From positions 3,928 to 67,927 of the forward strand of contig JBOHGM010000007.1 of assembly GCA_050699435.1 (NCBI GenBank): a stretch of 64,000 nt of DNA, read 5' to 3'. The translations under genes were made by a program, and so were the position numbers. The notes beneath the pieces were generated by a model. The model did no database searches. It saw only the letters and a program-made list of their open reading frames with translations, and was not told where the DNA came from. Below, in pieces: positions 15,261 to 53,534 of this stretch. The DNA comes from Pseudonocardiaceae bacterium. GTDB taxonomy: Bacteria > Actinomycetota > Actinomycetes > Mycobacteriales > Pseudonocardiaceae. The stretch's first letter is position 1. Each line of letters starts with the position of its first letter.

Positions 15261-16781
15261 TCAGGTGGTCCAGCGTCGCACGCGCTTCTTCGACGTGGCG
15301 CGCAGCGCAGGGTCGTAGCTGCGCTGCGCCGCCTCACCGCGGGCGCGTTCGAGCCCGTGCAGCAGCCCGAAGGTGAACCCGTTCTCGCCGGAGAGGTGTG
15401 CGACGACGCCGAGCTGACGCAGCGCATCGCGGGCGACCACGCTGTCCTGGTGCTCGCCGAGCACCTCCTGTAGGTGTTCCATCCGCTTGGCGAGCCGCTT
15501 CGCCGGTTTGCCGAGCACCGAGGCGACCGATTCGGCGGCATAGCGTGCCCGCTTGGCCGCCTTGCGTACCTCGTGCAGCAGTTCCTCGCGTTGCCCTTCG
15601 GTGGCGGCCGCGTCGGCGGCGCGGGCAGCGCGGTCGACCCGGGAAGCGGCACGAGCGACCAGTCTGGGCAGCTTGCGTTTGGCGCGCTTGCGGGCTGGCG
15701 TGGTGAGCGGCGGGTCAGTCACGAGTTCGTCGAGGACGTCGAGTAGCCGCCGGTAGCGCTCGTCGTCGAGAGCCTCGATCAGGTGCTGGTGCCCGGTGCG
15801 GTGCCGCGCACCCAGCTCCAGGTCGATGCGTCGCAGCACCGGGCCAAGTGTCAAGTCGCCAGGCTGCTCCTCGGCCAGTCGACGCAGCCGGTCATGCAGC
15901 ACCTCGGCGTCGCGAGGTTCGCCGAGCGCTCCGCCGAGCCAGCGCAGCTCGTCCCGGACGGGATCGGTGCGCTCCCGGTCGAGCAGCGGGCGGTAGGTCG
16001 CCAGCGCGCTGCGCAACCGCCGGGCCGCGACACGCATCTTGTGCACGGCATCGGGCTCGTCGACGCGCGCGCCACGCTCGCGTGCGACCAGCTCTCCGAC
16101 CTGCTCGCGCAGATGCGCAACGGCGACGTCACCGGCATGCGAGCGCAGCGAGAGGTCAGCGTGCCTGTGCTGCCCAGGGACCAGGTCGCCGAGGGTGCGC
16201 TGGAGTTTGGACGCCGACGCGGACCGGGTCAGGCCTGCGGACTCCAGGCTGGCGCTCACTGCCTCCAGCAGCGCCTGGTCGCCGCCGACGAGTTCGACCT
16301 CCACCTCCCGCCATGCGGACACGTCGACCGAACCCTCGCGCAGCCGCTTGGCGTGCACGGTGTCGTCGGCGACAATGGCCAGGTCGTCGCCGACGGGGTC
16401 GAGCAGGCGCTGTTCGCGCCGGATCGTGCGCAGCAGCGCTACCGGGACGAGATCTTCCCCACGGCTCAGCCCGCGTACCTCCTTCGCCAGGGCCTTGGGC
16501 ACCCGGTGCGTGGCGCGCTTCAGCGGCAGCCTGATCTCGGTGCGCTGCTCGCTCCCAGCGGGGAGCTTCAGATGCCAGCCTTGGTCGGCGCCACCGGTTC
16601 GCCGTCGCAACGTGGTGCAGTGGGCGGCTAACCGCACGTCCGGGGTGTCGAAGTAGGTGGCCTCCAAGATGGTCTCGGCCGGATCTGTGACCGTGGCGAC
16701 ACCCTCGATGCTGGATAAGTCGGGGAGCGGGGTAGCAGCATCAGTGTCGAACTTGCGCTCGATCTCGGACAAGCGGCCCAT
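15261..16781 (-). CDS. CYTH and CHAD domain-containing protein
   Basis: 506 aa. The N-terminus is CYTH-like (EIERKFDTD...LRRRTGGADQGWHLKLP). The C-terminus is helical and His/Arg-rich in the CHAD style (VHKMRVAARRLRSAL, LHEVRKAAKRARYAAE). Confidence 0.85.
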   Translation of the reverse strand: MGRLSEIERKFDTDAATPLPDLSSIEGVATVTDPAETILEATYFDTPDVRLAAHCTTLRRRTGGADQGWHLKLPAGSEQRTEIRLPLKRATHRVPKALAKEVRGLSRGEDLVPVALLRTIRREQRLLDPVGDDLAIVADDTVHAKRLREGSVDVSAWREVEVELVGGDQALLEAVSASLESAGLTRSASASKLQRTLGDLVPGQHRHADLSLRSHAGDVAVAHLREQVGELVARERGARVDEPDAVHKMRVAARRLRSALATYRPLLDRERTDPVRDELRWLGGALGEPRDAEVLHDRLRRLAEEQPGDLTLGPVLRRIDLELGARHRTGHQHLIEALDDERYRRLLDVLDELVTDPPLTTPARKRAKRKLPRLVARAASRVDRAARAADAAATEGQREELLHEVRKAAKRARYAAESVASVLGKPAKRLAKRMEHLQEVLGEHQDSVVARDALRQLGVVAHLSGENGFTFGLLHGLERARGEAAQRSYDPALRATSKKRVRRWTT

Positions 16782-17029
16782 GGACCATACCTACCTCAGG
16801 GACCGGGGGAACGCGAACGCGCGTCCGCCCTACGTCTGCGGTGTCATGCCTGCAGCCGGCCACTGACATGACCTCCGATGCGGTCGGTCTGGACCGCCAT
16901 GGTGCGAGAACGGCCAGGCCTGCCCCGATGTTCCCCCGGATGAGTGAGGGGCCTGGGATTGGGCCTGAGAACGTGTACTCTTCTCGGGTCCGGACCACCC
17001 CGCCCCAGGGAGATCCCGAGTGACGCACT

Positions 17030-30676: not shown

Positions 30677-30771
30677 GCGAGTGCCGAGGGGGTGGGGTGT
30701 GTCGGTACCCGGGGCCCAGCGATGCCGGCGCTAGGATTCGAACGGGTGTTCGCTCATCTGAGGAGGTGTCG

Positions 30772-45539: not shown

Positions 45540-45723
45540 ATTTTTGCTCCTTCCGTCGCCCCCGACAGTCGGATCTTTTGCGGATCAGGATTCCGTGCCA
45601 AAGCACGTGCAAGGAAATTTCTCGGGCGGAGTTGGGCTGCCTCGGGCGGCTCGGACGGGCCGGACGACCAGGAGCGGGATCACACAGACTCGGACCGAGT
45701 CGGACCGAGTGTGAGGTCATTTT

Positions 45724-48372
45724 GTGATCCACCGCCGGGGGCTGGAGCATACTGATGCGGTGGATGACTACGAAGCCCTGCCCATTCCTGAGCCAGTCAC
45801 GCACTTGTGGAACTGCGTGAAGCAGGCGCTGGCGGCGAACGAAGATCCTTCACCTCGCCGCATCGATCGCATGGCCGCGGCTGCCGGCCTTGAACTGGCA
45901 GCGAGCACGATCGCAGGCTGGTTCGAGACGTGGTCTGTCGTCCCGACATGGGAGAAGTTCGAGGTCTTGATCAAGGCGTTGGCCGCCGAGCATGACAAGG
46001 ACTGGCGCACGCTGCACCGAGCGGCGCTCGTGGCCGACCGTGAGCGCAAGAGGGAGGAACGGCGAAGCAGAGATCTGGGTCGGCCGGATGCTCCGGTAAC
46101 CACGCCGCCCGTGGGTTCGCCCGTGGCCACGAGTCGGCAACTTGATCCACAGCCCTCGGCCCACAACGGCTTCGCCCCGACGGCGATGCGGGATGGCATT
46201 GCGGGAGCTTCCGCCGACCAGTCCTCAGATGCTGCAGTTGCCGTGCCCGCTGCCGTGCACGGCAACGTCTACGGCGACCTGTACCTGCATCAGCTTACGG
46301 GCGGCTCGACACCCGAGGCTAGGTCGGTGCCGCGGCAGCTTCCGGTGGAAGTGGCGCATTTCACCGGCCGGAGCGCCGAGCTGGCGAGGCTCGATGCCCT
46401 CCTCGTCCAGGAGGATGCGGCTCGGCCCGCCGCCATGGTGATCTCCGTGGTGGCCGGTACTGCGGGGGTGGGCAAGACGGCCCTGGTGGTGCATTGGGCT
46501 CATCGGGTTCGCGAGCACTTCCCCGATGGGCAGCTGTTTGTGAACCTGCGCGGCTATAGTCCTGGTTCGACGATGAGCTCTGAGCAGGCCCTCGAAGAGT
46601 TCTTGCGGGCCTTGGGTGTTCCTGCCGAGGGTATTCCCGCCGGGTTGGAGGCGCGGGCCGGGATGTACCGTTCCCTGCTCGACGGGCGCCGCGTGTTGAT
46701 CGTGCTGGACAATGCCACCAGCGCCGAGCAGGTACGGTCGCTGCTGCCTGGCTCACCGACTTGCCGGGTGGTGGTGACCAGTCGCAGTCGCCTGTCTGGC
46801 CTGATCGCCCGGGACGGAGCCAGCCGGGTCACGCTGGACCTGCTGCCCCCGGCCGAGGCCATCGGGCTGCTGCGGGATGTCATCGGGGCCGCCCGGGTCG
46901 CCGCCGAACCCGGGGCGGCTGCCGAGCTGGCCAGCCGGTGCGCGTTTTTGCCGCTGGCGTTGCGCATCGCGGCCGAGCGTGCCGTCACGCACCCCCACGC
47001 CACGCTGGCTGACCTCGCCGACGAGCTGGCGGTGCAGCGTGACCGCCTGGACCTGCTGGCCATCGCCGAGGAGGAGGATGAGACCACCGCGGTGCGTGCG
47101 GTGTTCTCCTGGTCCTACCACGCCTTGCCGGCGGAGGCAGCGCGGGCATTCCGGCTGCTCGGCCTGCACGCCGGACCCGACATCAGCGCCCCGGCCGCCG
47201 CCGCGCTCACCAGCACCACCCTCGCCCAGGCGCGGCGGTTGCTGGAAACCCTGGTCGGCACGCACCTGATTGAGGAGACCGGGCGAGACCGGTACCGGTT
47301 ACACGACCTGCTGCGGGTCTATGCCGCCGAGTGCGCGACGGCGGAGGACACCGGCCGCGACCGTGCCGACGCCGTGCGCCAAGCGCTCACCTGGTACCTG
47401 CACACCGGCGACGCGGCCGCGCGCGTGCTGAACCCGCACCGCCGCCGCGTCCCCCTCGAGCATCCCGAGAAAGCCTGCTCGCCGCTGGAGTTCCCGACCT
47501 ACCGCCAGGCCCTGAACTGGTGTGAGGCTGAACGGGCGAATCTCGTGGCAGCCACCCGCCAAGCCGCGGAGAGCGGCGAGCATGTCATCGCCTGGCGGCT
47601 TCCCGTTGCCCTGTGGGATTTCTTCAACCTGCGCAAACACTGGGCCGACTGGATCACGACCCACCACATCGGCCTCAGTTCCGCTCAGCACCTCCAGGAC
47701 CGGCAAGGCGAAGCCTGGGTCTGGGGCGGCCTCGGTATGGCCTACTTCTTCCTCCGGCAGCACCAGGAGGCCCTCGATCACTTCCAGCATGCGCTGCCCC
47801 TGTGTCAGGAGACCGACGACCCATGGGGTGAGGCTATGAGCCTGCTCGGCCTCGGCACCGCCCATTTTTATCTGGGTAAGTACGAGGACGCCGCCGACTA
47901 CTCCCAGCGCGCACTGAGCATCTGCCAGGAAGTCGACGACCCATGGGGCCATACTCTCGCCCTGCTCAACATCGGCGCCGTCCACCGGAAGCTGCAGCAT
48001 TTCGAGGAGGCTCTCGACTATTTCCAGCGGGCCCTGGCTGTCGCCGGCCCCGTGCATGACCAAGCGGGCGAGGCCATGACACTGCATAACCTCGGCGCCA
48101 CTTACCGGGATCTTCATCAGTTCGAGGAGGCCCTTGAGCATTTCATGCGGGCGTACACTACTTTCCGCAAGATCAGTGACCGATGGGGCGAAGCCCAGAC
48201 CCTGCGCCAGATCGGTGATGTCCTGCAGCACCTCAACCGGATGGAGGCGGCAGTCAAGTACTGGAACCAGGCGCTGCCGATCTTCGAGGATCTCGGCGAC
48301 TCGGCCACCGCAGTGAGGGTCCGAACCAGCCTGGAGATAGCTGATACCGACAACCTGGATCAACGACGGTAA
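45724..48372 (+). CDS. STAND NTPase: N-terminal HTH-like domain + NB-ARC + TPR repeats
   Basis: 882 aa. The N-terminus has STIAGWFETWSVVPTWEKFEVLIKAL. Walker A is GTAGVGKTALV, and a Walker B-like RVLIVLDNA is present. The NB-ARC winged-helix region has FLPLALRIAA. The C-terminus carries about 8 TPR units (GEAxxLxxLGxxYxxLxxxEEALxxFxxAL). Confidence 0.85.
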   Translation: MIHRRGLEHTDAVDDYEALPIPEPVTHLWNCVKQALAANEDPSPRRIDRMAAAAGLELAASTIAGWFETWSVVPTWEKFEVLIKALAAEHDKDWRTLHRAALVADRERKREERRSRDLGRPDAPVTTPPVGSPVATSRQLDPQPSAHNGFAPTAMRDGIAGASADQSSDAAVAVPAAVHGNVYGDLYLHQLTGGSTPEARSVPRQLPVEVAHFTGRSAELARLDALLVQEDAARPAAMVISVVAGTAGVGKTALVVHWAHRVREHFPDGQLFVNLRGYSPGSTMSSEQALEEFLRALGVPAEGIPAGLEARAGMYRSLLDGRRVLIVLDNATSAEQVRSLLPGSPTCRVVVTSRSRLSGLIARDGASRVTLDLLPPAEAIGLLRDVIGAARVAAEPGAAAELASRCAFLPLALRIAAERAVTHPHATLADLADELAVQRDRLDLLAIAEEEDETTAVRAVFSWSYHALPAEAARAFRLLGLHAGPDISAPAAAALTSTTLAQARRLLETLVGTHLIEETGRDRYRLHDLLRVYAAECATAEDTGRDRADAVRQALTWYLHTGDAAARVLNPHRRRVPLEHPEKACSPLEFPTYRQALNWCEAERANLVAATRQAAESGEHVIAWRLPVALWDFFNLRKHWADWITTHHIGLSSAQHLQDRQGEAWVWGGLGMAYFFLRQHQEALDHFQHALPLCQETDDPWGEAMSLLGLGTAHFYLGKYEDAADYSQRALSICQEVDDPWGHTLALLNIGAVHRKLQHFEEALDYFQRALAVAGPVHDQAGEAMTLHNLGATYRDLHQFEEALEHFMRAYTTFRKISDRWGEAQTLRQIGDVLQHLNRMEAAVKYWNQALPIFEDLGDSATAVRVRTSLEIADTDNLDQRR

Positions 48373-48380
48373 CCGCCGGT

Positions 48381-49640
48381 TCAGGGACGGTATGCCACGT
48401 GAGCGATCTCGTCGCGCCGGGCGACGAGCGCGGCTAGTGCCGTGGTGATCGGGACAGCCGCGACCAGTCCGATACTGCCCACCAGGGTCCGCACCACCTC
48501 CTGGGCGACCTCCTGCGCGGTCACGAGGGTGCCGAAGCTCTGCCCGGCCAGCGAGTAGGCCAGCAGCAGTGGCAGTGCGGCCCCCGCGTAGGCCAGCGCC
48601 AGGGTGTTCACCGCTGAGGAGATGTGGTCGCGGCCGATCCGCAGCGCGGAGCTGTAGAGCGCGCTGGCCCCCAGGTCGGGATTTGCTCGGCGCAGTTCCC
48701 ACACCGCGCTGGTCTGCGTGACCGTGACGTCGTCCAGCACGCCCAGTGCACCGATGATTATCCCAGCGAGCAGCAGACCGCGGGCGTCGATCCCGGTACC
48801 CAGCACGCCGATCAAGTTGGCGGTGTCGGAACCCAGTCCGGTCAGCTTCGTGGCGGCGGTGAAGGCGGTGCCCAGCACGCCGATCAGCGCGAGGCTGAGC
48901 AGGGTACCCAGCACCGCCGTCGAGGTCTGCGCGGAGAACCCGTGCGTGAGGTACAGCACACCGAACATGATCACGCCGGCGGCCAGCACGCCGACGATCA
49001 CCGGATCGGCGCCGCCCAAGATGGCCGGGAACAGGTAGACCACCAGCACCGAGAAGCTGAAGCCGAGCGCGACCAGCGAGGCGAGGCCCTTCCACCGCCC
49101 GAGCAGCAGCACCGCAACGGCGAACAGCGCCACGAGCCACAGCATTGGGGCGCCCCGCTGGAAGTCGACGACCTGGTAGGACAACTCGTCGCCGGGATCG
49201 CCGCCGCTGTAAGCCAGCACGATATCGTCGCCGACGGTGAATCTCGGCGTGCTCGGCTCGTCGGGCAGGACTTGCTGGATGGTCTCGCCGCGAGAGCTAC
49301 CCTCGGTGAGCTGCACGGTGAGCGCGACGCACTCGCTGCCCTGGTCGGCCTCCGCCGCGTTGGCGCCGGTGCAGGGGGCGGAGACAGCCTCGAGCACCTC
49401 GCCGTGCACCGGCCGCTGACCGAACCCGAGGTCGGCATCGCTACCTGGTGGCTCGCCGCTGGGCCAGGTCAGCCCCACTCCCACCAGGGTGGCCAGCGCA
49501 AACGGCACGAGTACCGCGACCAGCAGCAGCTGCACCCGAGAGGAGGAGGGCACCGGGGGCCCGTGGCCGTGCCCAGACCCGACTGGTTCAGCGGTGCCGT
49601 CGTGGCGGTGCCGTCCGGTCCTGCGGTCTGGTCCACTCAT
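48381..49640 (-). CDS. YibE/F family membrane protein
   Basis: 419 aa. It has an N-terminal extracytoplasmic domain, then multiple TM segments with GLLLAGIIIGALGVLDDVTVTQ and AYAGAALPLLL motifs. It converges on the STAND gene with an 8-bp gap. Confidence 0.8.
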   Translation of the reverse strand: MSGPDRRTGRHRHDGTAEPVGSGHGHGPPVPSSSRVQLLLVAVLVPFALATLVGVGLTWPSGEPPGSDADLGFGQRPVHGEVLEAVSAPCTGANAAEADQGSECVALTVQLTEGSSRGETIQQVLPDEPSTPRFTVGDDIVLAYSGGDPGDELSYQVVDFQRGAPMLWLVALFAVAVLLLGRWKGLASLVALGFSFSVLVVYLFPAILGGADPVIVGVLAAGVIMFGVLYLTHGFSAQTSTAVLGTLLSLALIGVLGTAFTAATKLTGLGSDTANLIGVLGTGIDARGLLLAGIIIGALGVLDDVTVTQTSAVWELRRANPDLGASALYSSALRIGRDHISSAVNTLALAYAGAALPLLLAYSLAGQSFGTLVTAQEVAQEVVRTLVGSIGLVAAVPITTALAALVARRDEIAHVAYRP

Positions 49641-49715
49641 CGGCTGGGCGTCCCTCTCTGGTCGATACTGCCGATGTTCCTAGCGGATCGAACGTCTGTT
49701 CGATATGGTGGGTTC

Positions 49716-51638
49716 GTGCGATGGGACAACCTGACACTGTCCGGCCAGGACGCGCTATTCGGGGTGGGCGATGTCGTGGCGCGCACCTTTGACACCCCGG
49801 AGTTCCGCGGGATGACGTTCTACGAGGTGGCGGCCCGCTCGATCCTCAACAAGGTGCCGGCCGCTTCCCGGATGCCCTTCGGCTGGACGCTCAACCCGTA
49901 CCGGGGCTGCAGTCACGCCTGCAGGTACTGCCTGCCAGGAGACACCCCGATCCTCATGGCCGACGGGCGGACCACTCCGCTGGCGGACGTGCGCGTGGGG
50001 GATGCGATCTACGGCACCGTCCAGGACGGCTGTTACCGGCGCTACGCGCTCACCGACGTGGTGGCCCACTGGCGGACGGTCAAACCTGCCCACCGCGTCA
50101 CGCTCGAGGACGGGACCGAGCTCGTGGCCAGCGGCGACCATCGCTTCCTCACCGATCTGGGGTGGAAGCATGTGACCGGTGGCGCTGACCGACCCGCTCT
50201 GACGGTGGGCGATGAGGTGATCGGAACCGGGCAGTTCGCGGCACCGCCGGAGGACTCGACCGACTACCGCCGCGGCTATCTGTGCGGCATCGTTCGCGGC
50301 GACCCGCAGCACACATTGGGATTGGTCGATCGTGAGGTGCTGCGCAGGGTTGGTTGTTATTTCATGGACGCCGGTACTCGTACCCGGGGGTGGGAGCTCC
50401 AGGCGGTCGGTGGCCCCCCGTCACCGGCGAGGTCAACGATGCGCGATCAGATGCGCGTCGGATTCGAGGCCATCGCCGAGATGATCAGCTGGCCGAGCGC
50501 CCCGGCTGGCGCCTGGTACCAGGGGTTCCTGGCCGGGATTTTCGATGCCGAAGGGAGCTGTTCTGACGGCACCCTCCAGATCGCCACTATCGACCCGACT
50601 GTCGTCGAGTCAGTGCTCTCGGGCTTGACGCTTTTCGGTTTTCGCTGCACCGTCGAGGACCCCGAGTGGTCCACCGGCCCGCGGTGTGTCCGGCTGCTCG
50701 GCGGAGCCGGTGAGCAGCTCCGTTTCTTCCACACCGTCGACCCGGCGATCAGTCGGAAGCGGTCGATCGCAGGCATGGCGATCCGCCAATGCGTGCGGGT
50801 GGTCTCGGTCGAGGATCTCGGCGTGCAGTTACCGATGTACGACATCACGACCGGGACAGGGGACTTCATCGCAAGCGGGGTAGTGTCGCACAACTGCTTT
50901 GCCCGGCGGACGCACGAGTACCTCGATCTTGACGCTGGCGCTGACTTCGACTCGAAGATCGTGGTGAAGGTCAACGCGCCGGAGCTGTTGCGCAAGGAGC
51001 TCGCTTCGCCGCGCTGGGCGGGGGAGCACATCGCGATGGGCACCAACGTCGATCCCTACCAGCGCGCCGAGGGGCGCTATCGCCTGATGCCCGGGATACT
51101 CGAGGCCCTGCGCGACGCGCGGAATCCCTTCTCGATCCTCACCAAGGGCACCCTGGTGCTACGCGACCTCGACCTGCTCCGCGAGGCTGCGGAGGTCACC
51201 GACGTTTCGGTCAACGTCTCGGTCGGATTCGTCGACGAGGCCCTCTGGCGGGTGGTCGAGCCCGGCACTCCCGCGCCCCGCGCCCGGCTCGGGGTGTGTC
51301 GCACGCTCACCGCTGCGGACATCGGCTGCGGAGTGCTCATGGCGCCGATCCTTCCGTACCTCACCGACTCACCTAGCCAGCTGGAGGCGACCGTGTGCGC
51401 GATCGCCGAGGCCGGCGCCCGCAGCGTCACCCCGATCGTGCTCCACCTTCGTCCCGGCGCGCGGGAGTGGTATCTCGCCTGGCTGGAGCGTGAGCACCCC
51501 GAACTGGTGCCCCGCTATCAGGATCTCTATGCGGGCGGTGCCTACGCCCCCAAGGCATACCAGCGCAACATTTCTGCGCGCGTTGCCCAGCTCGCCCACC
51601 GGTATGGCGTCGGCTCGACGAGCCCGGGCAAGACCTGA
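49716..51638 (+). CDS. Rv2578c-like radical SAM protein interrupted by an intein
   Basis: The exteins read VRWDNLTL...LNPYRGCSHACRY | CFARRTHEYLDLD...NPFSILTKG. The radical-SAM CxxxCxxC motif is only restored after removing 49929-50894. The start is either GTG 49716 or ATG 49674. Confidence 0.85.
   Translation: MRWDNLTLSGQDALFGVGDVVARTFDTPEFRGMTFYEVAARSILNKVPAASRMPFGWTLNPYRGCSHACRYCLPGDTPILMADGRTTPLADVRVGDAIYGTVQDGCYRRYALTDVVAHWRTVKPAHRVTLEDGTELVASGDHRFLTDLGWKHVTGGADRPALTVGDEVIGTGQFAAPPEDSTDYRRGYLCGIVRGDPQHTLGLVDREVLRRVGCYFMDAGTRTRGWELQAVGGPPSPARSTMRDQMRVGFEAIAEMISWPSAPAGAWYQGFLAGIFDAEGSCSDGTLQIATIDPTVVESVLSGLTLFGFRCTVEDPEWSTGPRCVRLLGGAGEQLRFFHTVDPAISRKRSIAGMAIRQCVRVVSVEDLGVQLPMYDITTGTGDFIASGVVSHNCFARRTHEYLDLDAGADFDSKIVVKVNAPELLRKELASPRWAGEHIAMGTNVDPYQRAEGRYRLMPGILEALRDARNPFSILTKGTLVLRDLDLLREAAEVTDVSVNVSVGFVDEALWRVVEPGTPAPRARLGVCRTLTAADIGCGVLMAPILPYLTDSPSQLEATVCAIAEAGARSVTPIVLHLRPGAREWYLAWLEREHPELVPRYQDLYAGGAYAPKAYQRNISARVAQLAHRYGVGSTSPGKT
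49929..50894 (+). other. 322-aa intein with a LAGLIDADG homing-endonuclease domain
   Basis: Block A is CLPGDTPILMADG. Block B is LVASGDHRFLT. The LAGLIDADG motif is FLAGIFDAEGSC (about 50525-50560). The C-terminal blocks are MYDITTGTGDFIASGVVSHN, followed by +1 Cys. Confidence 0.85.
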
Positions 51639-51764
51639 TGAAGGCTCGGCACTCGAAGGACCGCCTGCCCGGCTGCACGGTGGGGGACGGGCGGGAACGC
51701 GGACCTGGGACACGATTAGCCTCTGTAAGGTTCCGTCGTCCAGATCGAGGAGTTCGCACCCGCG

Positions 51765-53534
51765 ATGCGCACCGACCTTGCAGGCACGCTCTCCGCCCAC
51801 GAGTTCCCAGGGCGGATTATCACCCTGGCCGGGTGGGTCGCCCGCCGCCGCGACCACGGAGGCGTGATCTTCATCGACCTGCGGGATGAGACCGGTGTGG
51901 TGCAGGTGGTGTTCCGCGAGGGCGAGATGGCGCAGCGGGCCCACCGGCTGCGCGCCGAGTTCTGCATTCAGGTCACCGGTCTGTTGGCGCTTCGCCCCGA
52001 GGGCAACGAGAACCCGGAGCTGCCCAGCGGCGAGGTCGAGGTCATCGCCGACGAGCTGACGGTGTTCAGCGAGTCGGCGCCGCTGCCGTTCCAGCTCGAT
52101 GAGTATCTGGAGGTCGGCGAGGAGGTGCGGCTGCGGTACCGATACCTCGATCTGCGTCGTCCTGGCCCGGCGGCCGCGATGCGGCTACGCAGCGAGGCCA
52201 GCCGGGTCGTCCGCGAGGTGCTGGACCGGTGGGGATTCATCGAGGTGGAGACCCCGACCCTGACCCGTTCCACTCCGGAGGGCGCGCGGGACTTCCTGGT
52301 GCCCGCCCGGCTGCAGCCGGGCTGCTGGTACGCACTGCCGCAGTCACCTCAGTTGTTCAAGCAGCTGCTCATGGTCGGAGGCGTCGAGCGGTATTTCCAG
52401 ATCGCCCGCTGTTACCGGGATGAGGACTTCCGTGCCGACCGGCAGCCCGAGTTCACCCAGCTCGACATGGAGATGAGCTTCGTCGACCAGGACGAGGTGA
52501 TCACGCTGAGCGAGCGGGTGGTGGTCGCGCTGTGGTCGGAGCTGGCTGACCACCAGATCGAGCGACCGATTCCCCGGCTGACCTACGCTGACGCGATGGC
52601 GAGCTACGGCACCGACAAGCCGGACCTTCGTTTCGGGCTTGAGCTCACCGAACTCACCGGCTACTTCGCCGACACCCCGTTTCGGGTGTTCCAGGCGCCC
52701 TACGTGGGGGCGGTAGTCATGCCCGGCGGGGCAGGTCAGGCGCGCAGGCAGTTGGACGCCTGGCAGGAGTGGGCCAAGCAGCGGGGCTCCCAAGGCCTGG
52801 CCTACGTGCTGATCGGCGAGCACGGCGAGCTCTCCGGGCCGGTGGCCCGCAACCTCGCTGACCATGAGCGGGAGGGTCTGGCCAAGGCGGTTGGCGCCAA
52901 CCCTGGCGACTGCGTGTTCTTCGCCGCGGGGGATCCGCGGGACGCCCGTGCGGTGCTGGGTGCCGCTCGGGTCGAGATCGGCAGGCGGTGCGGGCTGATC
53001 GACGAGTCGGCGTGGTCGTTCGTCTGGGTGGTCGAGGCGCCGATGTTCGAACCCGTCGAGCGCTCTGGGGATATCGCCATGGGGCACAGCGGCTGGACCG
53101 CGCTGCACCACCCGTTCACTGCGCCGACGTCGGAGTGGATCGACCGCTTCGAGCAAGATCCCGGCTCCGCGCTGGCCTACGCCTACGACCTGGTCTGTAA
53201 CGGCAACGAGATCGGTGGCGGCTCGATCCGCATCCACCAGCCAGACGTGCAGCAGCGGGTGTTCCGGGTGCTCGGGATCTCCGAAGAGGAAGCGCAGGAG
53301 AAGTTCGGGTTCCTGCTGGAGGCGTTCCGCTACGGCCCCCCGCCGCACGGCGGGATCGCCTTCGGCTGGGATCGGATCTGCATGTTGCTCACCGGTGCCG
53401 ACTCCCTGCGTGAGGTCATCGCCTTCCCCAAGTCCGGTGGCGGTCTCGACCCACTCACCGGGGCCCCCGCGCCGATCACCCCGGAGCAGCGCCTCGAGGC
53501 CGGGGTGGACGCGAAGCCGCCCGTGAAGGGGTAG
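51765..53534 (+). CDS. aspS: aspartate--tRNA ligase
   Basis: 589 aa. It has an OB-fold N-terminus ([19 protein letters not shown]). Class II motifs: [27 protein letters not shown]. Confidence 0.97.

Follow-up and report, generated by a model that had tools for sequence, protein, structure and literature searches.

The stretch of DNA considered here (the window) comprises 64,000 nucleotides (nt) from a Pseudonocardiaceae bacterium (GenBank assembly GCA_050699435.1, contig JBOHGM010000007.1, positions 3,928 to 67,927 of the forward strand), and the element in question is an intein carried within a radical SAM gene at positions 49716-51638 of this stretch. With a probability of roughly 0.9, positions 49929-50894 encode a class-1, LAGLIDADG-type intein of the NF038136 family, which interrupts an SOS-regulated, SplB-like gene directly before the third cysteine of the C-x3-C-x2-C motif, owes this position to selfish targeting of the motif, and has been inherited together with its host. 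The forward-strand translation of this segment is a stop-free run of 322 amino acids (aa), CLPGDTPILMADG...GVVSHN, which agrees exactly with the sequence quoted in a preliminary description of the locus made from the letters alone. The insert lies in one frame with both of its flanks (...NPYRGCSHACRY - insert - CFARRTHEYLDLD...), and no open frame was found on the opposite strand of 49929-50894.

The gene most likely starts at the GTG at 49716 and ends with the stop codon at 51636-51638, because all homologues open with MRWDNL... and because GenBank holds an identical 640-aa protein (P0001), named intein-containing Rv2578c family radical SAM protein. A long listed open reading frame beginning at 48624 was rejected on the same two grounds as an artefact of high GC content. 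The parts of the precursor are as follows.

49716-51638, forward strand: precursor gene of an intein-containing Rv2578c-family radical SAM protein, 640 aa plus stop, from the NF038136 match and the identical P0001
49716-49928, forward strand: N-extein, 71 aa, with GCSHACRY at its C-terminus; Cys65 (49908-49910) and Cys69 (49920-49922) are the first two cluster cysteines
49929-50894, forward strand: class-1 intein, 322 aa, from Cys1 to Ser-His-Asn, recognised by translation, intein models, alignment, and AlphaFold/Foldseek
49929-49967, forward strand: intein block A, CLPGDTPILMADG; Cys1 (49929-49931) takes the third C-x3-C-x2-C position in the precursor
50112-50153, forward strand: intein block B, GTELVASGDHRFLT (ASGDH), in which S-x-x-H (Ser68, His71) replaces T-x-x-H
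50265-50306, forward strand: LAGLIDADG motif 1, YRRGYLCGIVRGDP, with the acidic Asp125 kept
50307-50324, forward strand: site of an 18-26-aa deletion relative to relatives of 340-345 aa, where alignments and AlphaFold show the first endonuclease half to have lost its β1-β2 hairpin
50523-50558, forward strand: LAGLIDADG motif 2, GFLAGIFDAEGS, with the catalytic Glu208 kept
50829-50879, forward strand: intein block F; blocks F and G together read LPMYDITTGTGDFIASG-VVSHN (50829-50894)
50880-50894, forward strand: intein block G, VVSHN, with the penultimate His and the terminal Asn
50895-51638, forward strand: C-extein, 247 aa plus stop, opening with Cys+1 (50895-50897), the third cluster cysteine once spliced

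Both the host and the insert are recognised by curated models. The precursor matched NCBIfam NF038136 (rSAM_Rv_intein, "intein-containing Rv2578c family radical SAM protein") far above chance level, with 829.3 bits (E 2e-249, cutoff 700) in an alignment that covers precursor residues 1-632 and positions 1-573 of the 574 in the model. In silico splicing reconstituted the GCSHACRYC motif (C-x3-C-x2-C) and gave a 318-aa extein that matched NF038135 ("Rv2578c family radical SAM protein") with 520.7 bits (cutoff 430); Pfam Radical_SAM was matched with 33.1 bits (cutoff 29.5). The Rv2578c-family host named in the preliminary description is borne out by these scores. The insert alone reached 234.6 bits against the intein portion of NF038136, matched TIGR01445 (intein N-terminal region), and gave weak matches to the Pfam domains Intein_splicing, LAGLIDADG_3 (intein residues 196-249), and Hom_end_hint.

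The intein therefore belongs to an already known class, covered by the curated NF038136 model, named as such in GenBank, and published among the SplB inteins. The survey of Novikova et al. 2016 (Mol Biol Evol 33:783; PMC4760082) reports 48 SplB/COG1533 inteins in Actinobacteria, which are equivalent to the NF038136 family. Both this publication and the existing curation had been overlooked in the preliminary description, and with the family curated, the exact protein annotated, and the SplB/COG1533 inteins surveyed in 2016, the find itself adds little. The best 80 species-level loci in GTDB include Micromonospora, Actinoplanes, Dactylosporangium, Asanoa, Catellatospora, Planosporangium, Nonomuraea, and many metagenome-assembled genomes of Pseudonocardiaceae and Streptosporangiaceae. 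No further intein was seen among the 20 large open reading frames of the window scanned with Pfam.

Among the homologues returned by database searches, those with a full-length intein form more than 120 clusters (59-82% identity), and more than 100 others are intein-less, with up to 89% identity across 100% of the spliced extein. The closest intein-less orthologues are 87-90% identical by alignment and 87-89% by BLASTP over 100% of the spliced extein, and mini-intein alleles of 131-164 aa occupy the identical site (P0190, P0193, P0195-P0197, P0199, P0201, P0203-P0205, P0209, P0213, P0221). In a 16-sequence alignment, full-length, mini-intein, and intein-less alleles are collinear and share a single insertion point, C-x-H-x-C-x-Y/C...SHN/C-F-A-R (slashes mark the junctions), which places the insert directly before the third Cys of C-x3-C-x2-C, as had been proposed. 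The closest intein-less gene (P0121, locus L081) offers an empty site, TACCGGGGCTGCAGCCATGCGTGCAGGTAT/TGCTTCGCCCGGCGGACGCACGAGTACCTC, that matches the window flanks at 55/60 nt, so that the insertion is clean at both the protein and the DNA level. Locus L081 further shares with the window a Lactamase_B gene, a divergent YibE/F gene, and the same upstream LexA box, and this shared neighbourhood, together with the box and the empty site, supports the orthology of P0121.

Conservation of the splicing residues was counted across 133 intein-bearing family members, in all of which (133/133) C1, S68, H71, D305, H321, and N322 of the intein are unvarying; C65, H67, C69, and Y71 of the extein are likewise unvarying in 150 aligned family members. 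Among the 80 loci, the junction C1...SHN/C+1 was found in 74 of the 74 that could be parsed, one more being a false pattern match and five unparsable. The N-terminal Cys, the block B S-x-x-H, the block F Asp, the C-terminal His-Asn, and Cys+1 together give the sequence signature of a class-1 intein. Assignment to class 3 was ruled out, as Cys1 is present, the Trp-Cys-Thr triplet is missing, and blocks F/G (...DFIASGVVSHN) contain no block F Cys.

Sequence searches of the PDB came up with no more than marginal matches, namely the gp41-1 and DnaB inteins (E 1e-3 to 1e-2) when the intein was the query and spore photoproduct lyase (phmmer E 0.76) when it was the extein, so that a comparison of folds was needed. 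An AlphaFold2 model of the precursor, built from a 150-sequence alignment with a mean predicted local distance difference test score (pLDDT) of 82.7, contains a Hint domain with a pLDDT of ~90 (precursor residues 72-170 and 357-393). Foldseek against the PDB ranked TliVMA, PI-SceI, and PI-PfuI, in this order, as the best matches of the intein (E 7e-12 to 7e-9), followed by mini-inteins; the template modelling (TM) scores, normalised to target length, were 0.82 for the NpuDnaB mini-intein and 0.8 for BIL2.

Briefly, following translation, an N-S acyl shift at Cys1 would be succeeded by attack of Cys+1 on the thioester (trans-thioesterification), cyclisation of Asn322 would then free the intein, and an S-N shift would link ...GCSHACRY to CFARR...; in the resulting 318-aa enzyme, what had been the +1 nucleophile would serve as the third cluster ligand. 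It had been stated in the preliminary description that the cysteine triad exists only after excision. This has to be corrected, because the precursor already reads C65-SHA-C69-RY-C72, in which C72 is the intein Cys1, and C-x3-C-x2-C(1) is kept in 133/133 members; the linear motif exists before splicing because Cys1 fills its third position, and Cys+1 substitutes for it afterwards. What splicing would restore is the continuity of the cluster loop with the remaining barrel, and the enzyme may reasonably be expected to need splicing for its activity.

Intein and host have diverged side by side. Amino acid identity is highest in the exteins (85-92%), lower in the splicing domains (76-88%), and lowest in the endonuclease domain (55-67%). 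Comparison of the window with six Pseudonocardiaceae loci gave similar synonymous divergence (dS) for the intein (0.55-0.8) and the exteins (0.33-0.83), with ratios of nonsynonymous to synonymous divergence (dN/dS) of 0.08-0.20 for the exteins, 0.13-0.35 for the splicing domains, and 0.32-0.40 for the endonuclease, and the GC content at third codon positions (GC3) is 0.82 in the intein and 0.86-0.90 in the exteins. The similar dS, the pattern of dN/dS, and the nearly equal GC3 argue for long co-residence rather than a recent arrival. In the window lineage, the intein has been inherited together with the host gene.

The same intein lineage is also found outside the Rv2578c family. When 1.8 billion representatives were searched without a profile, using just the intein sequence, 1919 relatives were obtained, including inteins in other hosts that are 35-45% identical across the whole intein. 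These hosts comprise B12-binding radical SAM proteins (P0283, P0338), gp37/DUF5131-like proteins fused to ParB (P0268, P0317, P0327), an NrdG/QueE-like protein (P0330), a "CYVP" SplB-like group (P0278, P0279, P0281, P0288), and several unclassified radical SAM proteins; the set is completed by P0292, P0341, P0343, P0359, P0361, P0379, and P0385. The intein precedes the third motif Cys in all of them but P0292, a B12-binding host in which it stands before the second Cys. Radical SAM genes of phages on the IMG/VR viral contigs L082-L091 (2501-~3550) further contain full-length relatives with 28-38% identity at the same point of the motif, and a relative with 22% identity lies inside a QueE-like CNLRCEW/C...HN/CDT on contig L093 (2501-3457).

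Given this recurrence of one intein lineage at one motif position in several radical SAM families and in phage genes, the insertion position is best explained as the selfish targeting of a Cys codon that is both conserved and indispensable, and the relatives on viral contigs suggest that phages are vectors of this motif-targeting lineage. The cross-family spread constitutes a clean example of an intein targeting a superfamily-wide motif and may merit a systematic survey. In the literature searched, no discussion of one intein lineage across radical SAM families was found, which is not proof of novelty, and nothing specific was found on inteins in connection with CxxxCxxC or radical SAM.

The mobility of the window copy is a separate matter. 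Family inteins have a modal length of 340-345 aa, and the 322-aa window copy falls in a sub-clade (with P0002, P0007, P0009, P0010, P0012, P0014, and others) characterised by the 18-26-aa deletion right after LAGLIDADG motif 1; alignments and models of relatives identify the deleted segment as the β1-β2 hairpin of the first endonuclease half. In the AlphaFold model of the window protein, this half (precursor residues 182-256) is all-helical with zero β-strands and a pLDDT of 48-61, and the canonical fold is confined to the second half. For the 340-aa relative P0003, in contrast, the model shows αββαββα twice, with strands E205-208, E217-223, E244-249, and E258-263 where the window protein has none. 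The two-half αββαββα arrangement that forms the DNA-binding β-saddle is thus incomplete in the window protein, as judged from a predicted model and not a solved structure. Both LAGLIDADG helices with their acidic residues are retained (YLCGIVRGD125P and FLAGIFDAE208G), and the motif-2 Glu has been lost in the same-deletion sisters P0002, P0007, P0009, P0010, P0012, P0016, and P0019.

The hairpin deletion and the structural models therefore indicate a homing endonuclease that is probably impaired, not certainly dead. Blocks A, B, F, and G and the LAGLIDADG motif are present as first described, but to read an intact endonuclease from them would be an overstatement in view of the deletion and of the strandless first half. 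Neutral decay of the endonuclease is unsupported as stated, the dN/dS of ~0.35 being relaxed and not 1. The deletion end-points of the mini-inteins differ among alleles, which points to several independent losses of the endonuclease in the family; this repeated reduction shows it to be dispensable.

Regulation of the host gene can be read from the two elements upstream of the GTG.

49688-49703, no strand assigned: LexA (SOS) box, TCGAACGTCTGTTCGA, a perfect match to the actinobacterial consensus TCGAAC-N4-GTTCGA
49704-49709, forward strand: TATGGT, a possible -10 hexamer read from the sequence, 6 nt upstream of the GTG

The box lies 13 nt 5′ of the GTG start and is the sole perfect match in the window, where matches with at most one mismatch number 3 against 0.12 expected by chance. 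At the same tolerance, 51 of the 80 related loci have a box in the 80 nt preceding the start, where ~0.11 would be expected; most of these boxes lie between -24 and -28, and the box of the intein-less locus L081 occupies the same place as in the window. The radical SAM gene thus appears from its sequence to be under LexA/SOS regulation, as is M. tuberculosis Rv2578c, which is LexA-bound and RecA-dependent (PMC3381160). Actinobacterial promoter architecture would allow the TATGGT to be taken as a -10 element, which may point to a leaderless mRNA; this reading stays tentative because a scan of 49550-51800 for E. coli-type promoters and terminators found nothing. Two LexA-like boxes with one mismatch occur elsewhere in the window: TCGAACGGGTGTTCGC at 30738-30753, just upstream of a ruvC-like start, which fits the membership of ruvC in the mycobacterial LexA regulon, and TCGAACTTGCGCTCGA at 16747-16762, near the start of a CYTH/CHAD gene (15264-16790, minus strand).

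Several points weigh against a selfish, vertically inherited, splicing intein. That the precursor actually splices is inferred from sequence features. When the nearest extein relatives are ranked by distance, alleles with and without the intein alternate among them, and the best match of the intein (P0002) differs from that of the extein (P0003), so that some horizontal movement, exchange, or precise loss is still going on in the family. The endonuclease could keep some function, since its dN/dS stays below 1 and neither catalytic acidic residue has been lost, and a purely selfish intein may be compatible with an added regulatory role. Part of this evidence also speaks for the intein being a still-active mobile element that homes by cutting intein-less alleles with its LAGLIDADG endonuclease: Asp125 and Glu208 persist in their motifs, the endonuclease dN/dS is below 1, and near relatives are polymorphic for the intein with discordant nearest neighbours. 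Active homing is nevertheless unlikely, given the removal of the β1-β2 DNA-binding hairpin, the low-confidence first half without the β-sheet seen in the 340-aa relative, the loss of the motif-2 Glu in same-deletion sisters, and the dispensability evident from the mini-inteins. A dead, non-splicing remnant in a pseudogene or inactive protein is more improbable by far, its sole hint being the degenerating endonuclease domain, which is nothing specific, against an open reading frame, splicing residues that are all unvarying, the low dN/dS of splicing domains and exteins, and a conserved promoter and LexA box. As to a native accessory domain of the enzyme, the collinear intein-less orthologues, which lack exactly these residues at 87-90% identity, and the syntenic empty site of L081 rule it out for practical purposes, and the Hint fold and the intein-model matches agree.

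A different question is whether the site confers an added function. A surrogate motif of Cys65, Cys69, and Cys1 might form a disulfide between Cys-3 and Cys1 or ligate an Fe-S cluster or metal, in which case redox or Fe-S status would gate both splicing and activation of the SOS enzyme; the possibility of such control was raised in the preliminary description. The precursor pairs, as read from its sequence, a Cys at extein position -3 with Cys1 (C69-R-Y-C72(1)), which is the spacing of the engineered CPGC redox trap; a disulfide of this kind occurs natively in the MoaA intein discussed below, and other inteins show Cys1/Cys+1 disulfides or inhibition of splicing by divalent metals (PMC3922620; PMC4031507). 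The unvarying C-x3-C-x2-C(1) of the family and a host enzyme that is oxygen-labile by class and, from its LexA box, stress-expressed point in the same direction. Against this, any intein with a Cys1 that enters just ahead of the third motif Cys produces the arrangement automatically, which is therefore not evidence of adaptation; closely related species live without the intein, so any regulatory role would be dispensable; and motif targeting accounts more simply for the occurrence of the same lineage at this site across unrelated families of radical SAM proteins. Because of the automatic spacing and the intein-less relatives, conditional splicing is considered doubtful. Further reaching, and distinctly less probable again, is the proposal that the intein acts as a post-translational gate throughout the phage-spread lineage, its decoy C-x3-C-x2-C being locked by a disulfide or by premature Fe-S or metal ligation, so that the SOS-induced SplB-like enzyme would mature only in a reducing, Fe-S-competent cell. 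Selfish targeting of the motif by an intein that has since been inherited with its host accordingly remains the preferred reading. The case could still matter, because the enzyme is DNA-damage-inducible and probably oxygen-labile and carries the intein within its Fe-S-binding motif, and the Rv2578c intein family offers a convenient bacterial system for studying redox- or Fe-S-linked conditional protein splicing.

The wider neighbourhood is that of a conserved core region. From ~29900 to 57200, the gene order is yebC, ruvC, ..., secD, secF, ..., relA, ..., YibE/F, radical SAM, aspS, DUF389, ..., rarA/mgsA, which presumably corresponds to M. tuberculosis Rv2559c-Rv2594c and would thereby support orthology with Rv2578c. 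Between the Lactamase_B gene and YibE/F, the window carries a gene for a STAND-type NB-ARC and TPR protein of ~885 aa (45715-48372, forward strand). A DUF5753 gene is found in its place in L081, which marks a variable islet beside the radical SAM gene.

Comparison with known systems places the window intein closest to the other NF038136/SplB inteins, with which it is identical in host family, insertion point, and intein lineage; it differs from the typical members in its length and in the missing hairpin after LAGLIDADG motif 1. The best structural matches, PI-SceI, PI-PfuI, and TliVMA, share its two-domain architecture of Hint and endonuclease with two LAGLIDADG motifs, but sequence identity is 11-15%, the first endonuclease half of the window intein has no β-sheet, and a separate DNA-recognition region is absent from it. 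The nearest solved relative of the extein is spore photoproduct lyase SplB (PDB 4FHC/4FHG), which has the radical SAM partial TIM-barrel in common with it (Foldseek E ~1e-4 over ~245 columns) despite negligible sequence similarity; COG1533 itself is annotated as "DNA repair photolyase".

With regard to conditional splicing, the closest parallel is the MoaA intein of P. abyssi, MoaA being a radical SAM enzyme. The window Cys-3/Cys1 geometry is that of this one known natural redox-trap intein, in which a native Cys-3/Cys1 disulfide is reported to block splicing until reduction (PMC3922620; PMC10663303). The MoaA intein has an oxygen-sensitive host and a Cys-3/Cys1 pair in the precursor, both as in the window family; it differs in being archaeal and in belonging to another host family. 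The mycobacterial SufB, DnaBi1, and RecA inteins, which have been proposed to be post-translational sensors of oxidative stress (PMC6195587; PMC8891592), resemble the window intein in that they are actinobacterial, reside in Fe-S or DNA-metabolism hosts, and use Cys nucleophiles. They differ from it in their hosts and insertion sites and in being experimentally supported, whereas the window family is known from its sequences.

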